Source: Actinomycetes bacterium (GTDB taxonomy: Bacteria > Armatimonadota > SYMT01). Taken from it: DNA of 60,658 bases. The stretch spans positions 1 through 60,658 of the forward strand of contig JANPLG010000399.1 in the NCBI GenBank assembly GCA_031426395.1, read 5' to 3'. This document shows positions 27,622 through 48,022 of the stretch, in pieces. Every line of letters starts with the position of its first letter. Within the stretch, counting starts at the first letter, position 1. The notes beneath the pieces were generated by a model. It had not been told where the DNA came from. It saw nothing but the letters and a program-made list of their open reading frames with translations, and did no database searches. The translations under genes were made by a program, and so were the position numbers.

Positions 27622-28779
27622 TTAGCGGCCGTAGCGGCTGAGACCCACGATGTTCATCTTCGGTGGCGGCGTGATGGAGGGGACCTGGAAGCCGTTCACA
27701 GTCCCATCGTCACGGAGGGCGCCGGCTTCCCGCATGAACTTGAGGAAGGCGTCCTTGTCCGGGGCCTTGATCATCGCCTCTTCCTGACTCACCTTGCCGG
27801 AGAGCACGAGGTCGCTCAGGGACTGCTCCAGAGTCTGCATCCCTTCCTTCACGCCCGTCTGGATGACGGAAGGCAACTGGAAGGTCTTCCCTTCCCGGAT
27901 GAGGTTCCGGACGGCGGGGGTAGCGACCATAATCTCCACCGCCGCAGCACGGCCCTTGCCGCTGGAGAGCTTGAGGAGGGTCTGGGCCACAACGCCCCGG
28001 AGCGACTCTGAGAGCTGGGCGCGGATCTGCGCCTGCTGGTGAGATGGGAAGACATCAATGATGCGGTCGATGGTCTGTGCGGCGCTGCTGGTGTGGAGGG
28101 TGCCGAAGACAAGGTGGCCCGTTTCAGCCGCGGAGACAGCCAGCGAGATCGTTTCGAGGTCTCGCATTTCACCCACGAGGATCACATCCGGATCCTCGCG
28201 GAGGGCGGCGCGGAGGGCGCTGCTGAAGCTCATGGTGTGCGGCCCGACCTCCCGCTGGTTCACCACGCACTTCTTGTGGGGATGCACGAACTCGATTGGG
28301 TCCTCAACGGTCAGGATGTGGCCGTGGCGGGAGTTGTTCACCTGATCGATCAGGGCGGCTAGAGTGGTCGACTTGCCGGAGCCGGTGGGTCCGGTGACGA
28401 GGATCAGGCCGCGCTCATACTCGGACATCTTGCTGACGACGGGCGGCAGGCCCAACTCCTCCACAGACTTGATCTCGGTGGGGATGACGCGGAAGACAGC
28501 GCCCACGCCACGGTGCCCCATGAACGCGTTGACGCGGAACCGGCCCGCTGCACCGAAATCGAGCGAGAAATCGAGGTCGTTCGTCTCCTCGAAGCGGGCC
28601 CGCTGGCGGTCGTTCATGATCTGGTAGATCAGGTCATGCGTGGACTCACGGGTGAGCGGCGGGTAGCTCATCGGCTCGATCTCGCCGTGGATGCGGACGG
28701 CCGGGGGCAGGCCGACGGTGAGATGGAGGTCGGAGGCCCGGTTCTCGAGCGTGTAGATGAGCAGCTCTGCGATATCCAT
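27622..28779 (-). CDS. pilT: Type IV pilus retraction ATPase PilT
   Basis: ASDLHL, GPTGSGKSTT, TVEDPIE, LREDPDVILVGEMRD, GHLVFGTLHT, AVRNLIRE, GMQTLEQ. Confidence 0.95.
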   Translation of the reverse strand: MDIAELLIYTLENRASDLHLTVGLPPAVRIHGEIEPMSYPPLTRESTHDLIYQIMNDRQRARFEETNDLDFSLDFGAAGRFRVNAFMGHRGVGAVFRVIPTEIKSVEELGLPPVVSKMSEYERGLILVTGPTGSGKSTTLAALIDQVNNSRHGHILTVEDPIEFVHPHKKCVVNQREVGPHTMSFSSALRAALREDPDVILVGEMRDLETISLAVSAAETGHLVFGTLHTSSAAQTIDRIIDVFPSHQQAQIRAQLSESLRGVVAQTLLKLSSGKGRAAAVEIMVATPAVRNLIREGKTFQLPSVIQTGVKEGMQTLEQSLSDLVLSGKVSQEEAMIKAPDKDAFLKFMREAGALRDDGTVNGFQVPSITPPPKMNIVGLSRYGR

Positions 28780-28861
28780 AACTGGATAGCTTCCTTTCCG
28801 AGGGCGTTCCGCCCCGTTGAAACCGGTGCCAATGAGCGAGGGAATGGAGCGGGGAGGTGAG

Positions 28862-29932
28862 TTAACGCCCGAGGGAGACGAAGCCGCGCATCTTGAGGCG
28901 GAGGTCGTTCGGGCTGTCCGCCGCGAGGAGGGCCGCGTCCTGATCGATGTGCCCCTGCTCATAGAGGGCGTAGAGGGATTGGTCGAAGGTGACCATCCCG
29001 TCCCGGTCGCCCTGCGCAATCGCCATCTTCAGCTCGCCGATGTCGCCGCGCTTGAGCAATTCGCGGACGCGCGGCGTGCCGACCATGATCTCCGAGCAGA
29101 GGCAGTAGGAGCCGGCGATGCCTCGGATCAACCGCTGCGAGGCGATCCCGCGAAGGTTGAAGGCGAGGAGCGAGAGGATCTCGTGGTGGCGGTCCGCAGG
29201 GAAGAACTGCAGCAGACGCTCCACCGTTTGGTTGGCGTTGGTGCTGTGCAGAGTCCCCATCACGAGGTGGCCGGTCTCAGAGAGGTGGAGCGCCGCTTCC
29301 GCCGCTTCCTGATCCCGAAGCTCACCCATCAGCAGCACGTCCGGGGCCTGACGAAGGGCGGCCTTCAGACCCTCGTGGAACGACTCCACGTCCATGCCGA
29401 CTTCCCGCTGGCTCACCACGCATCCCTTGTCCGGGTGGAGGAACTCAATGGGGTCCTCCAGGGTGACGATGTGGCCGTGGGTGTTCTCGTTTCGCCAGTC
29501 GACCATCGCCGCGAGAGTGGTGGACTTGCCACTGCCGGTGGCGCCGGTGACGAGGATGAGACCGCGGCGCTCCATGGAGAGCGTCTTGAGGACCTCCGGT
29601 AGGCCGAGTTCCTCCGCAGTAGGGACGCCGGTGTTGATGCGACGGAAACAGAAGGCGACGGTGCCCCGCTGGCGGTAGGCGTTACCGCGGAAGCGCCCTA
29701 CTCCGGGTATGGCGTAACTGAAGTCCGCCTGGTTGGTTCGCTCGAAGATCCCCTGCTCACGCGGCCGGAGGATGCGGCTGATCAGCGCATCGGTATCGTC
29801 CGCGCGGACCACCGGGTGGTCGGAGCGGATGGCGCGACCGGAGATCTTGTACGTGGGAGGAACGGGGACCTTGAGGAAGAGGTCCGAGGCGCGAAGCTCC
29901 TCCATCTGGCCCAGCAGGCTATCGAGATCCAT
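28862..29932 (-). CDS. pilU: PilT/PilU family ATPase (PilU-like)
   Basis: ASDLFL, GATGSGKSTT, LRQAPDVLLMGELRD, GHLVMGTLHS; lacks the AIRNLIRE motif; GGAG RBS. Confidence 0.8.
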   Translation of the reverse strand: MDLDSLLGQMEELRASDLFLKVPVPPTYKISGRAIRSDHPVVRADDTDALISRILRPREQGIFERTNQADFSYAIPGVGRFRGNAYRQRGTVAFCFRRINTGVPTAEELGLPEVLKTLSMERRGLILVTGATGSGKSTTLAAMVDWRNENTHGHIVTLEDPIEFLHPDKGCVVSQREVGMDVESFHEGLKAALRQAPDVLLMGELRDQEAAEAALHLSETGHLVMGTLHSTNANQTVERLLQFFPADRHHEILSLLAFNLRGIASQRLIRGIAGSYCLCSEIMVGTPRVRELLKRGDIGELKMAIAQGDRDGMVTFDQSLYALYEQGHIDQDAALLAADSPNDLRLKMRGFVSLGR

Positions 29933-30178
29933 GGCTCCATCCCGGGAGGGATCTACTTGGCCGCGTAAAGCGCTGTCACGCTCCCACTCTACGGCACGAT
30001 CCCTCACCGAGGACGGATTATCGGCGCATCCCGCGATCACTGAAGGCCGATTGCTAGGGCACGCCGCGATCTTGAGGCCAACGCCCCGCTACCTCACGGT
30101 CGCGGCTCGGCATCCTTCGGTAGTCGAGGCCGTTCCGCTGGACGGATGCAGTCTCCGACACCCCGATCCGGAAGGGTT

Positions 30179-35586: not shown

Positions 35587-35988
35587 CTACCAGACGTAAC
35601 AGAGAACCTCGCCCCCCAGCTTGCGCCGCCGGGCCTCACGGTCCGGTAGCACGCCGCTGCTGGTGCTTAGAATGGCGATCCCGAGGCCATTGACCACGCG
35701 CGGGATCTTCGTTGCGGGAGAGTACACCCGCAGACCGGGCTTGCTCACCCGCTTGAGCTGGCTTAGAACCGGCTCTCGCTTGGCGCTGTACTTCAGGAAG
35801 ACACGGATGATGCCTTGCTTGTCGTCCTGAATGGATTGATAGCCCCGGATGAACTTTTCTTGCGCCAGGATCTTGACGATCTCCAGCTTCAAGCGCGAGC
35901 CGGGGATTTCCACCTGCTCGTGGCCCGCCCGGGACGCGTTGCGGATTCGTGTGAGGAGATCCGCGATCGGGTCCGTTACCGAACTCAT
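35587..35988 (-). CDS. rpsH: 30S ribosomal protein S8
   Basis: [32 protein letters not shown]. Confidence 0.97.
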
Positions 35989-36000
35989 CTAGTTAACCTC

Positions 36001-36186
36001 TTACCAGCTTGCTTTGGTCACGCCGGGAATGAGTCCCCGGAGCGCCATCTCACGCAGACAGATCCGGCACAGGCCGAACTTGCGGAAGTACCCACGTGCC
36101 CGTCCACAAACGTTGCAACGCTTGTAGCTGCGCACCTGGAACTTCTGCGGCCGCCTGGCCTTCACGATGAGAGCGACTTTAGCCAT
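36001..36186 (-). CDS. rpsN: 30S ribosomal protein S14, Zn-binding type
   Basis: CNVCGRARG...[16 protein letters not shown]. Confidence 0.97.
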
Positions 36187-38221
36187 GCTCCTCGCGTTCC
36201 TTCCTTGCCTTCTCGATCACCTGCAGCGCCACGTTGCCGGGCACTTCCTCGTAATGACTGAACGAGGTGGTGAATTTCCCTCGCCCCCGCGCAATGCTGC
36301 GCAGCTCGATGGCGTAGCTCTGTAGTTCCGCCTGAGGCGCCGAGGCCCGGATGCATTGACGCCCGTTGCCTATCGGCTCCATCCCCAGGATGCGGCCCCG
36401 CCGCGTGTTCATATCACTGATCACGTCACCCATGTACTGCTCGGGAACCGTGATCTCGAGATTGCTCACGGGCTCCACCAACACCGGTCGGCATTTCTCC
36501 ATGCCGGCCCGGAATGCCAGATGGGCCGCCTGCCGGAACGCCATCTCAGACGAGTCGACATCGTGAAACGAGCCGTCGTCACAGGTGGCTTTAAAATCCA
36601 CGACAGGAAACCCGCCCAGAATACCATGCTCCGTCGCTTCATGCAGCCCTTTATCTACGGCGGGAATGAACTGGCGCGGAATTGACCCTCCAACGATGGC
36701 GTCCACGAACTGGTAGCCGGCTCCGCGCTCCAACGGCTCGAACTTGACCCAGCAGTCGCCGAACTGGCCGCGACCCCCCGTCTGCTTCTTGTGGCGCCCC
36801 TGGACGCGCGCCGTGCCGGTGATCGTCTCCCGATAGGAGATGCGGACGGCGACCTCCCTGACGTGGGTCCCATGCCGCTTCAGCCGGTCGATGACGACGG
36901 CGAGGTGGGTGTCTCCCTGGCCGGAGATGATGGTCTGACCGGTCTCCGGCTCACGGTGGAAGTGGAAGGTGGGGTCCTCCTCCGCCAGGCGGCCCAGCGC
37001 GGGGCCCATCCTGTCCTCGTCCGCCTTGGTGAGAGCCACGACGGCGCGGCTGTAGGAGGGCGCGGGGAACTCGATGCCGGGAAGCGTCTCGGACTTGCCG
37101 CGCTCGCAGAGGGTGTCTCCGGTGCCGGTGCCGGCGAGCTTGGCCGTGGCAGCGATATCGCCGGCAGCCACATCCGTCAGCGGCTCCTGCTGCTTTCCGC
37201 GCAGCGCGAAGAGCTGGCCCAGATGCTCCTCATGGTGGCGCTGGGCATTCTGGACATAGGCGCCGCCCTTGAGGACCCCGCCGTACACGCGGTAGTAGGT
37301 GACCTTGCCGACGTAGGGATCGCTCTGGGTCTTGAAGACGAGGGCCTGGAGGGGCGCTTCCTCCCTCGCGCCGGCCGCGCCGGCCTCGGCAGCGGAAGGG
37401 GTCATCTCGACGAGCGCATCGAGGAGCGCGTGGATTCCGGTGCAGTTGGAAGCAGCGGTGAAGAGAACCGGAATGGTATTCCCGGACTTGATCGCCTTCA
37501 CGATTCCGGCACACAGTTCGTCACCGGTGAGCTGCTCGCCGCCAAGGTATTTCTCCAGCAGTGAGTCATCCGCTTCGGCGGCGCACTCCATGAGGCATTC
37601 GCGGACACGGTCCACCTCCCGCTGGCAAGACGGGGGCACAGGACCGGTCTGGACGTCCTTGCCGCTGCCGGTGTAGGCGATGCCCCGCAGCACGTCCACC
37701 ACGCCCTGGAACGAGCGCTCCTGCCCAATGGGGATCTGCACCGGCACGCACCGGCCGCCGAAGACGCCCGTGATCGATTCCATCACCCGGCCGTAATCCG
37801 CGTTCTCCCGGTCCATCTTGTTGACCACGATTATCTTCGGGATGTGCCGGTCCGCCGCCAGCTCCCAGGCGGCCTCCGTGCCGACCTCCACGCCGGAAGG
37901 ACCGTTCACGGTCAGCAGGGCGGTATCGGCAACGCGGACCCCGCTGCCGACCTCTCCGATGAAGTCGAGATAGCCGGGAGCGTCCAGCAGGTTGATCTTG
38001 GCGTTCTCCCACTCCAGGGGCGCCAGCGCGAGGTTAATACTGATCCTTCGCTTCACCTCTTCCGGATCGAAGTCGGTGCGGGAACTGCCCTCGTCCACGC
38101 GGCCCAGACGGTCGACCGCGCCGGAGACGTAGAGCATGGCTTCCGTGAGGCTGGTCTTGCCGGAACCCTGGTGGCCGGCCACGACCACGTTGTGGATGGC
38201 ATCGCTGCGGTACCGCTTCAT
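36179..38221 (-). CDS. fusA: Elongation factor G paralog (EF-G2/EFG II type)
   Basis: All five EF-G domains; G1 GHQGSGKT, switch I RRISI, G3 DAPGY, G4 NKMD; domain [13 protein letters not shown] and [14 protein letters not shown]; AAGGAGG RBS. Confidence 0.93.
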
Positions 38222-38409
38222 CGCGTTTCCTCCTTATGACAGCATCATCGATGTCAGTCCGAGGGACTCAACTAGCGCATAGGGGCGCACTCAGGGAGCG
38301 CCTTCGGCATCACCGGCCGCAGGTGAACTCGAACGCCGGGAGATTGGGGGGGATGCAAGGAAGAGAGGAAGTCTGGATGGTCCATGCTTCCCCTCTTCAA
38401 AGGTTCCAC

Positions 38410-38441
38410 CCGTCCGGCGGGACGAGCCATCCGCCGGACGG
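38410..38441 (-). other. 11-bp perfect hairpin just after the rplE stop
   Basis: CCGTCCGGCGG / CCGCCGGACGG with a 10-nt loop; no U tract. Confidence 0.6.
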
Positions 38442-38466
38442 AATTGCCGGCTCCTCGATCCCTCGC

Positions 38467-39012
38467 CTACTTCTCAGCCCGGAAAGGAAGCCCCAGCCCC
38501 TTGAGGAGGGCGCGGCCTTCCTGGTCGGTCTTCGCCGTAGTGGTGATAATGATATCCATCCCGCGGATGCGATCAATCTGATCGTAGTCGATTTCCGGGA
38601 AAACAAGCTGTTCCTTCAGCCCCGTGGCGAAGTTGCCGTGCCCGTCGAACGAGTTCGGGTTGATCCCGCCGAAGTCACGGATGCGCGGCATCACCACGCT
38701 GAAGAGCTTGTCTAGGAAGAACCACATGCGGTCGCCGCGGATGGTCACCTTGGCACCGATCCGCATGCCCTCGCGGATCTTGAAGGCTGCGATCGACTTC
38801 TTGGCGCGGGTCACCACCGGCTTCTGGCCGGAGATGGCGGTCATGTCCTTCACCGCCGCGTCGATCGTCTTGGGGTCCTGCACGGCGGTGCTGACGCCCA
38901 TGTTGATGACGACCTTCTCCACGCGCGGAACCTGCATGACGTTCTTGTAGCTGAACTCTTTCATCAGCGACGCGACGACTTCGCCGCGGTATTTGTCTCT
39001 GAGACGAGGCAT
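38467..39012 (-). CDS. rplE: 50S ribosomal protein L5
   Basis: [44 protein letters not shown]. Confidence 0.98.
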
Positions 39013-39208
39013 CTGCGAATCTCCCCTGCCACCTGCGCGACCCGTGGGATGGAATGCGATCCATCCTGCGGATCAGGAACACCCGGCCGATCAGGTGTGG
39101 CCGCCCCACACCGGGTGCCTTTGAAAAGCGTACTCGCGAGGGCGGTGCCCTTGCGGATTGCGCCAGCCGTGGCCTGGGCCGGGGCTGGCGCAACCATGGG
39201 TGCTGTAG

Positions 39209-39568
39209 CTACTTGGCGGCGTCGAGGGTCGCGCCGCAATGCTTGCAGGCGCGGACCTTCTTGCCAGCCTCTTCCTTGTGGATCACGCGAGTCGGCTTGG
39301 CGCATCCGGGGCAGCAGACCATGAGGTTGCTGACGTGGACGGGGGCCGGCTTCTCGATCCGACCGCCCTGCTGAGCCTGGCCCATCGGCTTCTGGTGCTT
39401 GGTGATCATGTTGACGCCATCCACCGTGGCGCGCTCGCGCTGCGGATCGACGTTGAGGACCTTGCCCCGTTCGCCATTGCTGCGACCGGCGAGGACGAGG
39501 ACCTCGTCACCCTTCTTCAGATGCACCTTGAAGGTGGCGGTCACGTGACGCTTGCGCATCTGTCCCAT
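39209..39568 (-). CDS. rplX: 50S ribosomal protein L24
   Basis: KKGDEVLVLAG (KOW), VDGVN, EKPAPVHVSN; TAATG overlap with rplN. Confidence 0.96.
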   Translation of the reverse strand: MGQMRKRHVTATFKVHLKKGDEVLVLAGRSNGERGKVLNVDPQRERATVDGVNMITKHQKPMGQAQQGGRIEKPAPVHVSNLMVCCPGCAKPTRVIHKEEAGKKVRACKHCGATLDAAK

Positions 39569-41193: not shown

Positions 41194-42099
41194 TTAACCG
41201 CGCGGAGCGCCACCGGGGCGTCCGCCGCCGCCGCCACCGCTACGTCCGCCGCCACCGCCGCCGCCGCCACGGTAGCCGCCACGGTCTCCGCCGCCGCCAC
41301 CGCCGCCACGTCCGCCACGGTCTCCACCGCCGCCGCCGCCACCGCCACGTCCGCCGCGATCTCCGCCGCCGCCGGAGCGCTCGCTGCGTTCCCGCTCACG
41401 GTCCTCGGCACGGCGCGGCTGCCGGGTAACGAACGGCTCGTTCTGAGCGCGCTCCTTCTGCTCACGGCGCTGATCGGCCAGGATGTCGCCCTTGTAGAGC
41501 CACACCTTGATACCGATGTTGCCGTAGGTGGTTCCCGCTTCAGCGAAACCGTAATCGATGTCGGCGCGGAGGGTGTGAAGCGGGATCTTGCCCGTCTTGT
41601 CACCTTCCTTGCGCGCCATCTCGGCACCGCCCAGGCGACCACTCACCAGGACCTTGATTCCCTTGGCACCGACGCGGACGCTGCGCTGGATCGCCTGGCG
41701 GATGGCGCGCTTCGGCGCCACGCGCTTCTCGATCTGCTGGGCAATCGCTTCCGCCACGAGTTGGGCGTCCAGGTCCGGCTGCCGGATCTCCTGCACCACC
41801 AGATTGACCTGCTTGGCGAATTTCTTCTCCAGGTCCGCCTTGGTGTCGTCCACGCCGCGGCCGCCACGCCCGATGATCACGCCCGGCTTGCCGGTGTGCA
41901 GGGTGACCCGCAGCTTATCGGCCTGGCGGTCGATGGTAATGCGGGAGATGGCCGCGTTCATGAGCCGCTTCTTGAGGTAGCGGCGGATTTGGTAGTCTTC
42001 GTAGAGCCGCTGCGCGTAGTCTTTGTCCGCGTACCAGTTGCTCTCCCAGTCCCGGATGATGCCGATCCGGAAACCGATTGGATGAACTTTCTGACCCAT
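41194..42099 (-). CDS. rpsC: 30S ribosomal protein S3 with a Gly/Arg-rich C-terminal tail
   Basis: [43 protein letters not shown]. Confidence 0.98.
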
Positions 42100-46250: not shown

Positions 46251-47435
<1,185 letters not shown>

Positions 47436-47836
47436 GGTAGCTCCCCGATCGTTTCGATGCTCGCCCACCGTCTCGGCAGGCCCCAGACTGACGCCTCGCG
47501 GGCCTCTGTTTTGGCCCCACAAATGCAAACGAGGCGGCACTCATCCGAATCGCCCTGACGGCGACGCAGACAGTCCACCCCGTGACGCTCCTTCTTCTGG
47601 GCGACGGAAACCGCCGGACCGTGGAAGGACCGCTTTCACAAGCTTGGTTATGGAACGTGTTTTTAGACGTTCCCGCAGTCCACTGGCGGTCTATCGTCGT
47701 CGCTCGATAGACACAGTGATCGCCGATCATTTCGATCAGCGGAGGAGCCGTGGAAGGACCAAACCGCGACGTTGTGGACGTTACATCTCGACTCTATGCG
47801 GCGCACCCTATAGGTAGTCGCCTCAAGAGCCTGCGT

Positions 47837-47865
47837 ATAGTAGCAACGCCCCTGGGGGCTGTCAA
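47837..47865 (-). promoter_or_regulatory. Sigma70-type promoter for tuf and the S10 operon
   Basis: TTGACA (47865-47860), 17-nt spacer, TACTAT (47842-47837); a second TTGACA at 47898-47893. Confidence 0.75.
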
Positions 47866-48022
47866 GGAGATTCGCTTCGGCCTGGGGGTCGTTGTCAAGA
47901 GTCCCAGGCGTGCCCCCACTCGTCTTATGGCGCAGTGAGGGAACCGTGCTACGGGGCGGGCGGTCGTATTCTTTCCGAAACCCTGCTGCCATTGCCGCAT
48001 TGCGCTCTCCATAATCCACCTT

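Follow-up and report, generated by a model that had tools for sequence, protein, structure and literature searches.

An EFG II-type elongation factor G paralog encoded between rplE and rpsN in the spc operon of Armatimonadota

Contig JANPLG010000399.1 of a member of the Armatimonadota was analysed over 60,658 nucleotides (nt), a stretch which is referred to as the window in the following. On its minus strand, a gene for a 680-amino-acid (aa) paralog of elongation factor G (EF-G) is located within the spc operon between rplE and rpsN, the genes of the ribosomal proteins L5 and S14. As judged from its sequence, it encodes all five domains of an EF-G and belongs to the known EFG II / Thermus EF-G-2 type; the same arrangement was found in approximately 27 contigs. 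It is rather probable, in our opinion, that an EFG II paralog, which is inherited vertically within the spc operon and is co-expressed with the ribosomal proteins, serves as a constitutive auxiliary translocase beside the canonical EF-G. The features on which the following paragraphs rely are given below with their positions in the window.

36179 to 38221, minus strand: EFG II-type elongation factor G paralog, 680 aa, with the domains G/G', II, III, IV and V (Pfam, NCBIfam and PDB matches)
38153 to 38176, minus strand: G1/P-loop GHQGSGKT (residues 16-23), followed by Ser24 and Leu25 (translation; positions of Margus et al.)
38036 to 38050, minus strand: G2/switch I RRISI (residues 58-62) in place of RGITI, with Ser for the Mg-coordinating Thr (translation)
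37970 to 37984, minus strand: G3/switch II DAPGY (residues 80-84), with Tyr84 at the position of the catalytic His (alignments with Thermus EF-G and EF-G-2)
36179 to 36186, minus strand: 8-nt overlap ATGGCTAA of the stop codon of the paralog gene and the start codon of rpsN (sequence)
38229 to 38235, minus strand: Shine-Dalgarno sequence AAGGAGG, 7 nt 5' of the ATG start of the paralog gene (sequence)
38222 to 38466, minus strand: spacer of 245 nt between rplE and the paralog gene (sequence)
38410 to 38441, minus strand: perfect 11-bp GC-rich hairpin with the arms CCGTCCGGCGG and CCGCCGGACGG and a loop of 10 nt (sequence)
38467 to 39012, minus strand: rplE (50S ribosomal protein L5), upstream of the paralog gene (NF000585, 290 bits; open reading frame)
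36001 to 36186, minus strand: rpsN, type-Z (zinc-ribbon, 61 aa) ribosomal protein S14 (NF005974, 107 bits)
35587 to 35988, minus strand: rpsH (S8), with which the spc operon continues downstream (open reading frame; tblastn anchor)
46251 to 47435, minus strand: tuf (EF-Tu), directly upstream of rpsJ (EF-Tu models, approximately 730 bits)

The domain architecture of EF-G, i.e. a G domain with G' insert followed by the domains II, III, IV and V, was recovered by Pfam (PF00009, residues 9-276; PF22042/PF03144, 290-373; PF14492, 385-450; PF03764, 460-577; PF00679, 581-665). The best NCBIfam model was NF009381 (PRK12740.1-5, 'elongation factor G' subfamily; 862.7 bits, cutoff 583), with residues 1-677 aligned to positions 1-690 of a profile of 692 positions. 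Scores below the respective cutoff were obtained with the equivalog of canonical EF-G (TIGR00484, 637.7 bits, cutoff 659.4), the equivalog 'elongation factor G-like protein EF-G2' (NF009377, 598.3 bits, cutoff 890) and the EF-G2 model of Bacteroidota (NF058620, 536.9 bits, cutoff 1000), the best stretch of the latter being restricted to residues 1-500. A ribosomal protection protein of the Tet(M)/Tet(O) type was rejected on score (NF012153, 296.6 bits, cutoff 775). Among the full-length PDB matches, canonical Thermus EF-G (584 bits, E = 4.5e-174, residues 6-669 aligned to EF-G residues 9-688) ranked above Thermus EF-G-2 (499 bits), and with the G domain alone the best match was T. thermophilus EF-G-2 (1WDT, 138.9 bits). 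The full-length protein is closer to canonical Thermus EF-G because its domains II-V are less diverged. The loops of domain IV could be aligned with those of Thermus EF-G and are intact, in agreement with the earlier note on this DNA.

EFG II proteins are defined by the G1 motif GhxxxGKT with Gly16 and Leu25, by DxPG in G3 and by NKxD in G4; their G2 consensus is xxxSx, with RxxSI in Clostridia and r/kxxSI in Chloroflexi, and their genes are described as lying outside the str operon and as having no conserved neighbourhood (Margus et al. 2011, PMC3150367). The paralog possesses G16-HQGSGKT-S-L25, RRISI, DAPGY and NKMD, and its gene likewise lies outside the str operon. The canonical motifs AHIDAGKT, RGITI and DTPGH are absent. 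Separation from EFG I was seen in neighbour-joining (NJ) trees rooted on canonical fusA, in which the paralog was placed among paralogs with Tyr or Phe at the catalytic position, the reference sequences of Margus et al. not being part of these trees. A divergent G domain of the EF-G2 type, with RGITI replaced and Tyr at the position of the catalytic His, had been claimed beforehand, and this description was confirmed by the match to 1WDT, which shares GHxGSGKT and DAPGY, and by the EFG II definitions.

The orthologs of Armatimonadota share these residues. Tyr occurs at the position of Tyr84 in 127 of 128 sequences (Phe in the remaining one), the G2 motif R.(I/M)S(I/V) in about 127 of 130, and NK(M/L)(D/E) as well as the loops of domain IV are conserved. 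The paralog gene is intact and strongly constrained. All 74 relatives that were fetched from Chloroflexota, Bacillota and Actinomycetota possess Tyr or Phe at the catalytic position, while canonical fusA in the control loci encodes DTPGHVDF. Taken together with the EFG II motifs, this means that Tyr84 is a trait of the family and not a local oddity.

The ribosomal protein run of the window extends from tuf to map and reads, on the minus strand, tuf, rpsJ, rplC, rplD, rplW, rplB, rpsS, rplV, rpsC, rplP, rpmC, rpsQ, rplN, rplX, rplE, EF-G paralog, rpsN, rpsH, rplF and, further downstream, secY, adk and map. Both the order of the open reading frames (ORFs) and the NCBIfam calls place the paralog between rplE and rpsN in the spc operon, as had been read from the letters alone. 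The gene ends with GAG GAG CAT GGC TAA, and the ATG of rpsN lies within CATGGCTAA; the proposed overlap of 8 nt is thus present in the sequence. With approximately 65%, the G+C content of the window is uniform and shows no compositional break at the paralog. Misassembly at one of the two junctions, which had been named as a possible objection, was excluded by a Logan contig (4831 nt, run X1, freshwater-sediment metagenome) that corresponds to positions 36051-39500 of the window with 0 differences and an even depth of approximately 9x. Since this contig comes from an independent assembler and spans both junctions, the junctions are real. Considering also the uniform G+C content and the same gene order in about 27 contigs, an assembly or binning artefact can practically be discarded.

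The rplE-EFG-rpsN arrangement recurred in approximately 27 contigs from NCBI, JGI, ENA and Logan assemblies and is therefore not a product of chance. Both flanks were visible in L001, L006, L009, L081, L082, L163-L168, L311, L343, L348, L369, L370, L376 and L408, and one flank in L010, L315, L331, L339, L344, L391, L399, L409 and L410 (loci are given with three-digit L numbers). L001, L006 (Chthonomonas calidirosea), L009 and L010 stem from a collection of species-representative genomes and show the order L5-EFG-S14-S8. Eight contigs (L081, L082, L163-L168) were found by exact protein look-up in NCBI, JGI and ENA, and the metagenome contigs L409 and L410 were found through ribosomal protein L24. 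In a pattern scan, the order was present in all loci with visible context that bear the label Armatimonadota or Chthonomonad- (10 loci: L311, L331, L339, L343, L369, L370, L376, L391, L399 and L408); three further loci with this arrangement belong to unlabelled bacteria (L315, L344 and L348 (HR16)). The closest database proteins are 53-75% identical and come from Armatimonadota where a name exists.

In other phyla, none of approximately 170 EFG II loci (about 75 and about 100 in two scans) had ribosomal protein genes as neighbours. The set of about 100 loci comprised Gemmatimonadota, Actinomycetota, Desulfobacterota, Methylomirabilota, Acidobacteriota and others. The expectation that EF-G2 genes normally lie outside ribosomal protein operons was thereby corroborated. 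A motif of the [FY]GD[CA]W type was tried as a probe specific for Armatimonadota and was abandoned, since it is shared by Gemmatimonadota, Actinomycetota, Desulfobacterota and others; the loci retrieved with it served as negative control for the gene context.

The embedded genes were monophyletic in NJ trees with canonical EF-G as root, and Chthonomonadales were nested inside (bootstrap 97/100; 88/100 with more taxa); the nearest branches outside Armatimonadota were metagenome-assembled genomes (MAGs) of Chloroflexota, Actinomycetota and Bacillota. A single clade of embedded genes fits one ancient insertion with vertical inheritance, and the insertion has most probably been passed on vertically in much of the phylum Armatimonadota. 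In one MAG of Chthonomonadaceae (L007:6001-10140, on a contig of 747 kb that is also the contig of L381), the cluster is broken directly upstream of the paralog, where unrelated genes follow on the opposite strand; the paralog gene remained linked to rpsN, and an ORF of 359 aa is located between these two genes. The earlier note had allowed that this gene order might have been documented before as the normal state of the lineage, in which a canonical str operon would do the work. It is indeed widespread, and relatives do possess a canonical EF-G, but no publication that documents the arrangement was found: an spc operon with an EF-G gene was not mentioned for Armatimonadetes in the genome paper of Fimbriimonas, in the literature on EF-G paralogs or in the results of full-text searches. 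In public annotations, the embedded proteins are called "elongation factor G" only.

A second placement within the ribosomal protein cluster was detected in a metagenome scan based on ribosomal protein L24. In L411 (2422-4509) and L412, the order is rpsQ-EFG-rplN-rplX-rplE-rpsN-rpsH, so that rplE and rpsN are adjacent in this lineage. The same order was found in L416:10001-12085 (CP070648.1, a chromosome of 4.88 Mb), L417:5646-7721 and L418:5909-7990, and in L417 the EFG II gene overlaps both rpsQ and rplN. The encoded protein is also of the Tyr-type of EFG II, with GHGGSGKTSL, RNISI and DTPGYADF; its relatives in the databases carry the names of Armatimonadota and, in one case, of candidate division KD3-62. 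With approximately 22 sequences, these proteins form an NJ clade of their own, apart from the clade of proteins encoded between rplE and rpsN, and both clades belong to a larger NJ group that also holds sequences of Chloroflexota. The two placements may go back to one capture followed by a move or to two captures, between which distance trees do not discriminate. The L5 protein of the lineage with the rpsQ|rplN placement (L411:5441-6466; L416:13157-14152) comprises 331-341 aa, of which about 150 form an N-terminal extension with a high content of Ala, Pro, Lys and Glu.

Neither S7, S12 nor a canonical EF-G was detected by tblastn anywhere in the 60-kb window, and the next gene upstream of tuf encodes a sulfatase on the opposite strand; fusA is thus missing upstream of tuf, as had been stated from the sequence alone, and it is also absent from this position in L081, L166 and L168. 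The absence of fusA beside tuf demonstrates no more than a split str operon. In L165, the paralog of which is 73% identical to that of the window, the contig that carries the paralog gene also encodes a 697-aa EF-G (L165:2-559), which ends approximately 900 nt before tuf; its visible C-terminus is 63% identical to canonical EF-G of Armatimonadota and 50% identical to the paralog. L218 carries the end of rpsL, rpsG and a fusA gene for 697 aa (L218:1013-3106) with AAHIDAGKTTTTERIL, AHIDAGKTT, RGITI and DTPGHVDF. This locus, which was found via the signature MEPSHY, belongs to the same MAG assembly of Chthonomonas calidirosea (CAMCUQ01) as L006 with its embedded paralog. Two further MAGs of Armatimonadota also possess a canonical EF-G (L207:4708-6876; L271). 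When the C-terminal 185 aa of the canonical EF-G of L165 were used as query, only short fragments at contig ends and no full-length EF-G of Armatimonadota were obtained; the signature by which L218 was found emerged from the alignment of these fragments. In L165 and in Chthonomonas, the paralog is thus present in addition to a canonical EF-G, as in all EFG II genomes analysed by Margus et al., and the same is probable for the genome of the window.

Some peculiarities of the canonical genes were observed besides. The C-terminus of canonical EF-G in L165, L218 and L207 reads MEPSHY instead of the usual ME(F)xHY, following GRAS(Y/F/S)(S/T), and MEPSHY also occurs in Elusimicrobiota, Patescibacteria and some Clostridia. 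The gene tuf is separated from rpsL-rpsG-fusA and is preceded by 0.6-1.1 kb of non-coding DNA without tRNA genes (window 47436-48022; L165:560-1471). Four contigs of one clade (L082, L163, L164 and L167) begin within approximately 200 nt upstream of rpsJ, which suggests that assemblies break at a duplicated tuf.

Further observations concern other parts of the ribosomal protein run. L24 of the window (39209-39568, minus strand) has a C-terminal extension with two CxxC pairs (VCCPGCAKPT...ACKHCGATL) that resembles a zinc ribbon, and a similar extension is found in the lineage with the rpsQ|rplN placement (L411:4977-5420). S3 (41194-42099, minus strand) ends with a tail of about 70 aa consisting almost wholly of Gly/Arg/Asp repeats. 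The genes infA, rpmJ, rpsM, rpsK, rpsD, rpoA and rplQ follow map in the relatives L081 and L165 but not in the window, where two adjacent genes for PilT-like twitching-motility ATPases (27622-30040, minus strand) are located directly downstream of map.

The paralog gene is co-oriented and tightly packed with the ribosomal protein genes. Co-expression of the paralog with the ribosomal proteins is plausible, and the growth-rate co-regulation considered in the earlier note would be a reasonable assumption. Five loci (window, L001, L081, L165 and L166) share the identical junction GAGCATGGCTAA; in another clade (five loci), the gap between the paralog gene and rpsN is 0-23 nt with a good Shine-Dalgarno sequence. 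The earlier note had placed the ribosome-binding site of rpsN, GAGGAG, inside the paralog gene. The hexamer is indeed present there, but it ends 1 nt 5' of the rpsN ATG. This distance is too short for an ordinary Shine-Dalgarno contact and a normal function as ribosome-binding site is unlikely, so that the two genes are more likely coupled by termination and reinitiation. Upstream of the paralog gene, the spacer to rplE measures 245 nt, in comparison to 11-234 nt in relatives. A conserved RNA element was not detected in it (no Rfam match; fold z-score -1.49, which is not significant; not alignable with relatives), and no promoter- or terminator-like sites were predicted inside it. The hairpin at 38410-38441 directly 3' of the rplE stop codon lacks a T-run and is not conserved in relatives. 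In the soil metatranscriptome run X5, a contig of 258 nt was approximately 99% identical to a part of the paralog gene (window 36318-36573), which hints at transcription of the gene by a nearly identical organism.

From these observations, the following mode of action can be proposed. The paralog gene would be transcribed together with the ribosomal protein genes of the S10-spc cluster. A ribosome that has finished the 680 codons would terminate 5 nt past the rpsN start and reinitiate at rpsN, which would make the synthesis of S14 and of the products of the following genes dependent on prior translation of the paralog. The amount of the paralog would then be comparable to that of the ribosomal proteins during growth and would not be restricted to stress conditions. 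As in its relatives, the paralog probably binds to the factor site of the ribosome like EF-G and, with its intact domain IV tip, may promote the movement of tRNA and mRNA, as Thermus EF-G-2 does in poly(Phe) assays. The replacement of the catalytic His by Tyr84, of the Mg-binding Thr by Ser and of the P-loop Asp by Gly points to a nucleotide cycle unlike that of the canonical factor. We infer that the paralog acts as an auxiliary translocase with a modified GTPase cycle beside canonical EF-G.

The paralog shares its fold, the domain order, the domain IV loops, the G' subdomain and NKMD with canonical EF-G (EFG I, fusA), to which it is 39% identical in Armatimonadota; it differs by Tyr instead of the catalytic His, RRISI instead of RGITI, GHQGSGKT instead of AHIDAGKT and its location in the spc instead of the str operon. 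Among the EFG II proteins, T. thermophilus EF-G-2 (1WDT/2DY1), the founding member, resembles the paralog in the type of its P-loop (GHAGSGKTTL), in DAPGY and in the length class of a five-domain protein, and it is likewise a second EF-G beside a canonical one, as in the relatives of the window. It possesses TKLD instead of NKMD. T. thermophilus EF-G-2 has been reported to hydrolyse GTP and to support poly(Phe) synthesis (Margus et al. 2011, PMC3150367). The EFG II set of these authors, in which the Clostridia and Chloroflexi sub-subgroups share G1, Gly16, Leu25, RxxSI, DxPG and NKxD with the paralog, does not contain Armatimonadota, the genes of which form a clade of their own in the NJ trees. 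Whereas no conserved context has been described for EFG II genes, the paralog gene is located in the spc operon and overlaps rpsN.

Several points weigh against the interpretation as a vertically inherited, co-expressed auxiliary translocase. The inheritance was deduced from trees that are neighbour-joining only. In Chthonomonadales, the gap between the paralog gene and rpsN is 86-97 nt; strict coupling is therefore not universal. The 245-nt spacer and the hairpin behind rplE could attenuate transcription into the paralog gene. Codon adaptation (paralog 0.66; ribosomal proteins 0.67 ± 0.05; other genes of the window 0.61 ± 0.11) does not separate ribosomal protein genes from the other genes of the window and is therefore uninformative about the expression level. 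The canonical EF-G of the window's own genome is deduced from the relatives, as a contig of 60 kb was all that was covered of this genome. Finally, other characterised EFG II proteins behave differently from Thermus EF-G-2.

A division of labour between the two factors is a minor possibility. The embedded EFG II protein and canonical EF-G would then split translocation and recycling dependent on ribosome recycling factor (RRF), as in Borrelia and in mitochondria; split EF-G functions are documented for the spirochaete and mitochondrial paralogs. That the paralog has been kept across the phylum, with Tyr84 in 127 of 128 sequences and conserved domain IV loops, argues for an essential, non-redundant role, and its position in the operon suggests constitutive expression. 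In addition, canonical EF-G of Chthonomonas has GGSGQYGD in loop 1 of domain IV and not GGRGQYGH. However, the canonical EF-Gs of L207 and L165 look ordinary where they are visible, the EFG II proteins studied so far are not specialists for recycling (the mycobacterial one cannot recycle), and nothing in the sequence of the paralog marks a factor for recycling only.

It is unlikely that the paralog is instead a factor that traps ribosomes or slows down translation at low energy and lacks a ribosome-stimulated GTPase activity, like EF-G2 of Mycobacterium smegmatis or Bacteroides. The exchanges His to Tyr, Thr to Ser and P-loop Asp to Gly would agree with such a function. M. smegmatis EF-G2 (9K0Z/9K10), a distant match (456 bits), also occurs beside a canonical EF-G1 and also lacks conserved residues in the GTPase centre. 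It is reported to have no ribosome-dependent GTPase activity, to be dispensable and stress-specific and to trap post-translocation ribosomes, with the loops of its domain IV displaced from the tRNA; its gene is not known to be part of a ribosomal protein operon. The Bacteroides EF-G2 type (7UVP/8DMF, deposited as TetQ), which lacks the catalytic His as well (DCPGS), matches the G domain of the paralog (residues 1-178; 129 bits). Bacteroides EF-G2 is induced when carbon is limiting, and its translocation does not require hydrolysis of GTP. Those Armatimonadota that are in culture are oligotrophs with slow growth, which would fit a slow-translation factor. On the other hand, the paralog remains far below the cutoffs of both EF-G2 models (NF009377, 598 and 890 bits; NF058620, 537 and 1000 bits), and the Thermus EF-G-2 G domain, the nearest solved one, possesses the same Tyr, yet this factor hydrolyses GTP and supports poly(Phe) synthesis. 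A stress-only factor would also not be expected in a core ribosomal protein operon in which translation of rpsN is coupled to it; the position in the operon suggests constitutive expression, unlike the starvation-induced Bacteroides protein.

A GTPase for ribosome assembly or quality control, comparable to BipA or to eukaryotic Efl1, would explain co-expression with ribosomal proteins, and the two positions in the ribosomal cluster of related lineages (rplE|rpsN and rpsQ|rplN) as well as the tight coupling on both sides in L417 could be regarded in this way. Such a function is nevertheless very unlikely, as no member of the family is known to act in ribosome assembly and the full conservation of the domain IV tip, which contacts tRNA and mRNA, points to translating ribosomes.

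A replacement of canonical EF-G by the paralog, which would then be the sole or main translocase of the window's genome, is very unlikely. The earlier note had considered the paralog as a possible main translocase, and the missing fusA and the intact domain IV loops would agree with this. However, canonical EF-G was found beside the paralog on the contig of L165 (the closest relative with a readable upstream region) and in the Chthonomonas assembly CAMCUQ01, as well as in two further MAGs of Armatimonadota, and genomes with a single EF-G always possess EFG I (Margus et al. 2011, PMC3150367).

EFG II, the family of the presumed auxiliary translocase, was known before; new is its tightly coupled, lineage-wide context in the most conserved operon cluster of bacteria, with two alternative sites. 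The S10-spc cluster has one of the best conserved bacterial gene orders, and the presence of an EFG II gene in it predicts a constitutive expression proportional to that of the ribosomes. The reports about the activity of EFG II proteins are in conflict, as these are active in Thermus but GTPase-dead and stress-specific in mycobacteria. Chthonomonas calidirosea, of which a MAG has the arrangement, and perhaps Fimbriimonas ginsengisoli are culturable test organisms. For practical purposes, rplE-EFG-rpsN represents a simple gene-order marker for lineages of Armatimonadota, and an "elongation factor G" annotated in the spc operon of these bacteria should not be mistaken for the canonical factor.

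It is a far-reaching and rather doubtful extension that the Tyr-type EFG II protein has become a constitutive partner of the ribosome at the stoichiometry of the ribosomal proteins and has taken over either translocation or RRF-dependent recycling. If this were true, EF-G would have undergone subfunctionalisation independently once more, this time with a factor that dispenses with the catalytic histidine, and the capture of EFG II at two sites of the S10-spc cluster would reflect selection for co-expression with ribosomes.

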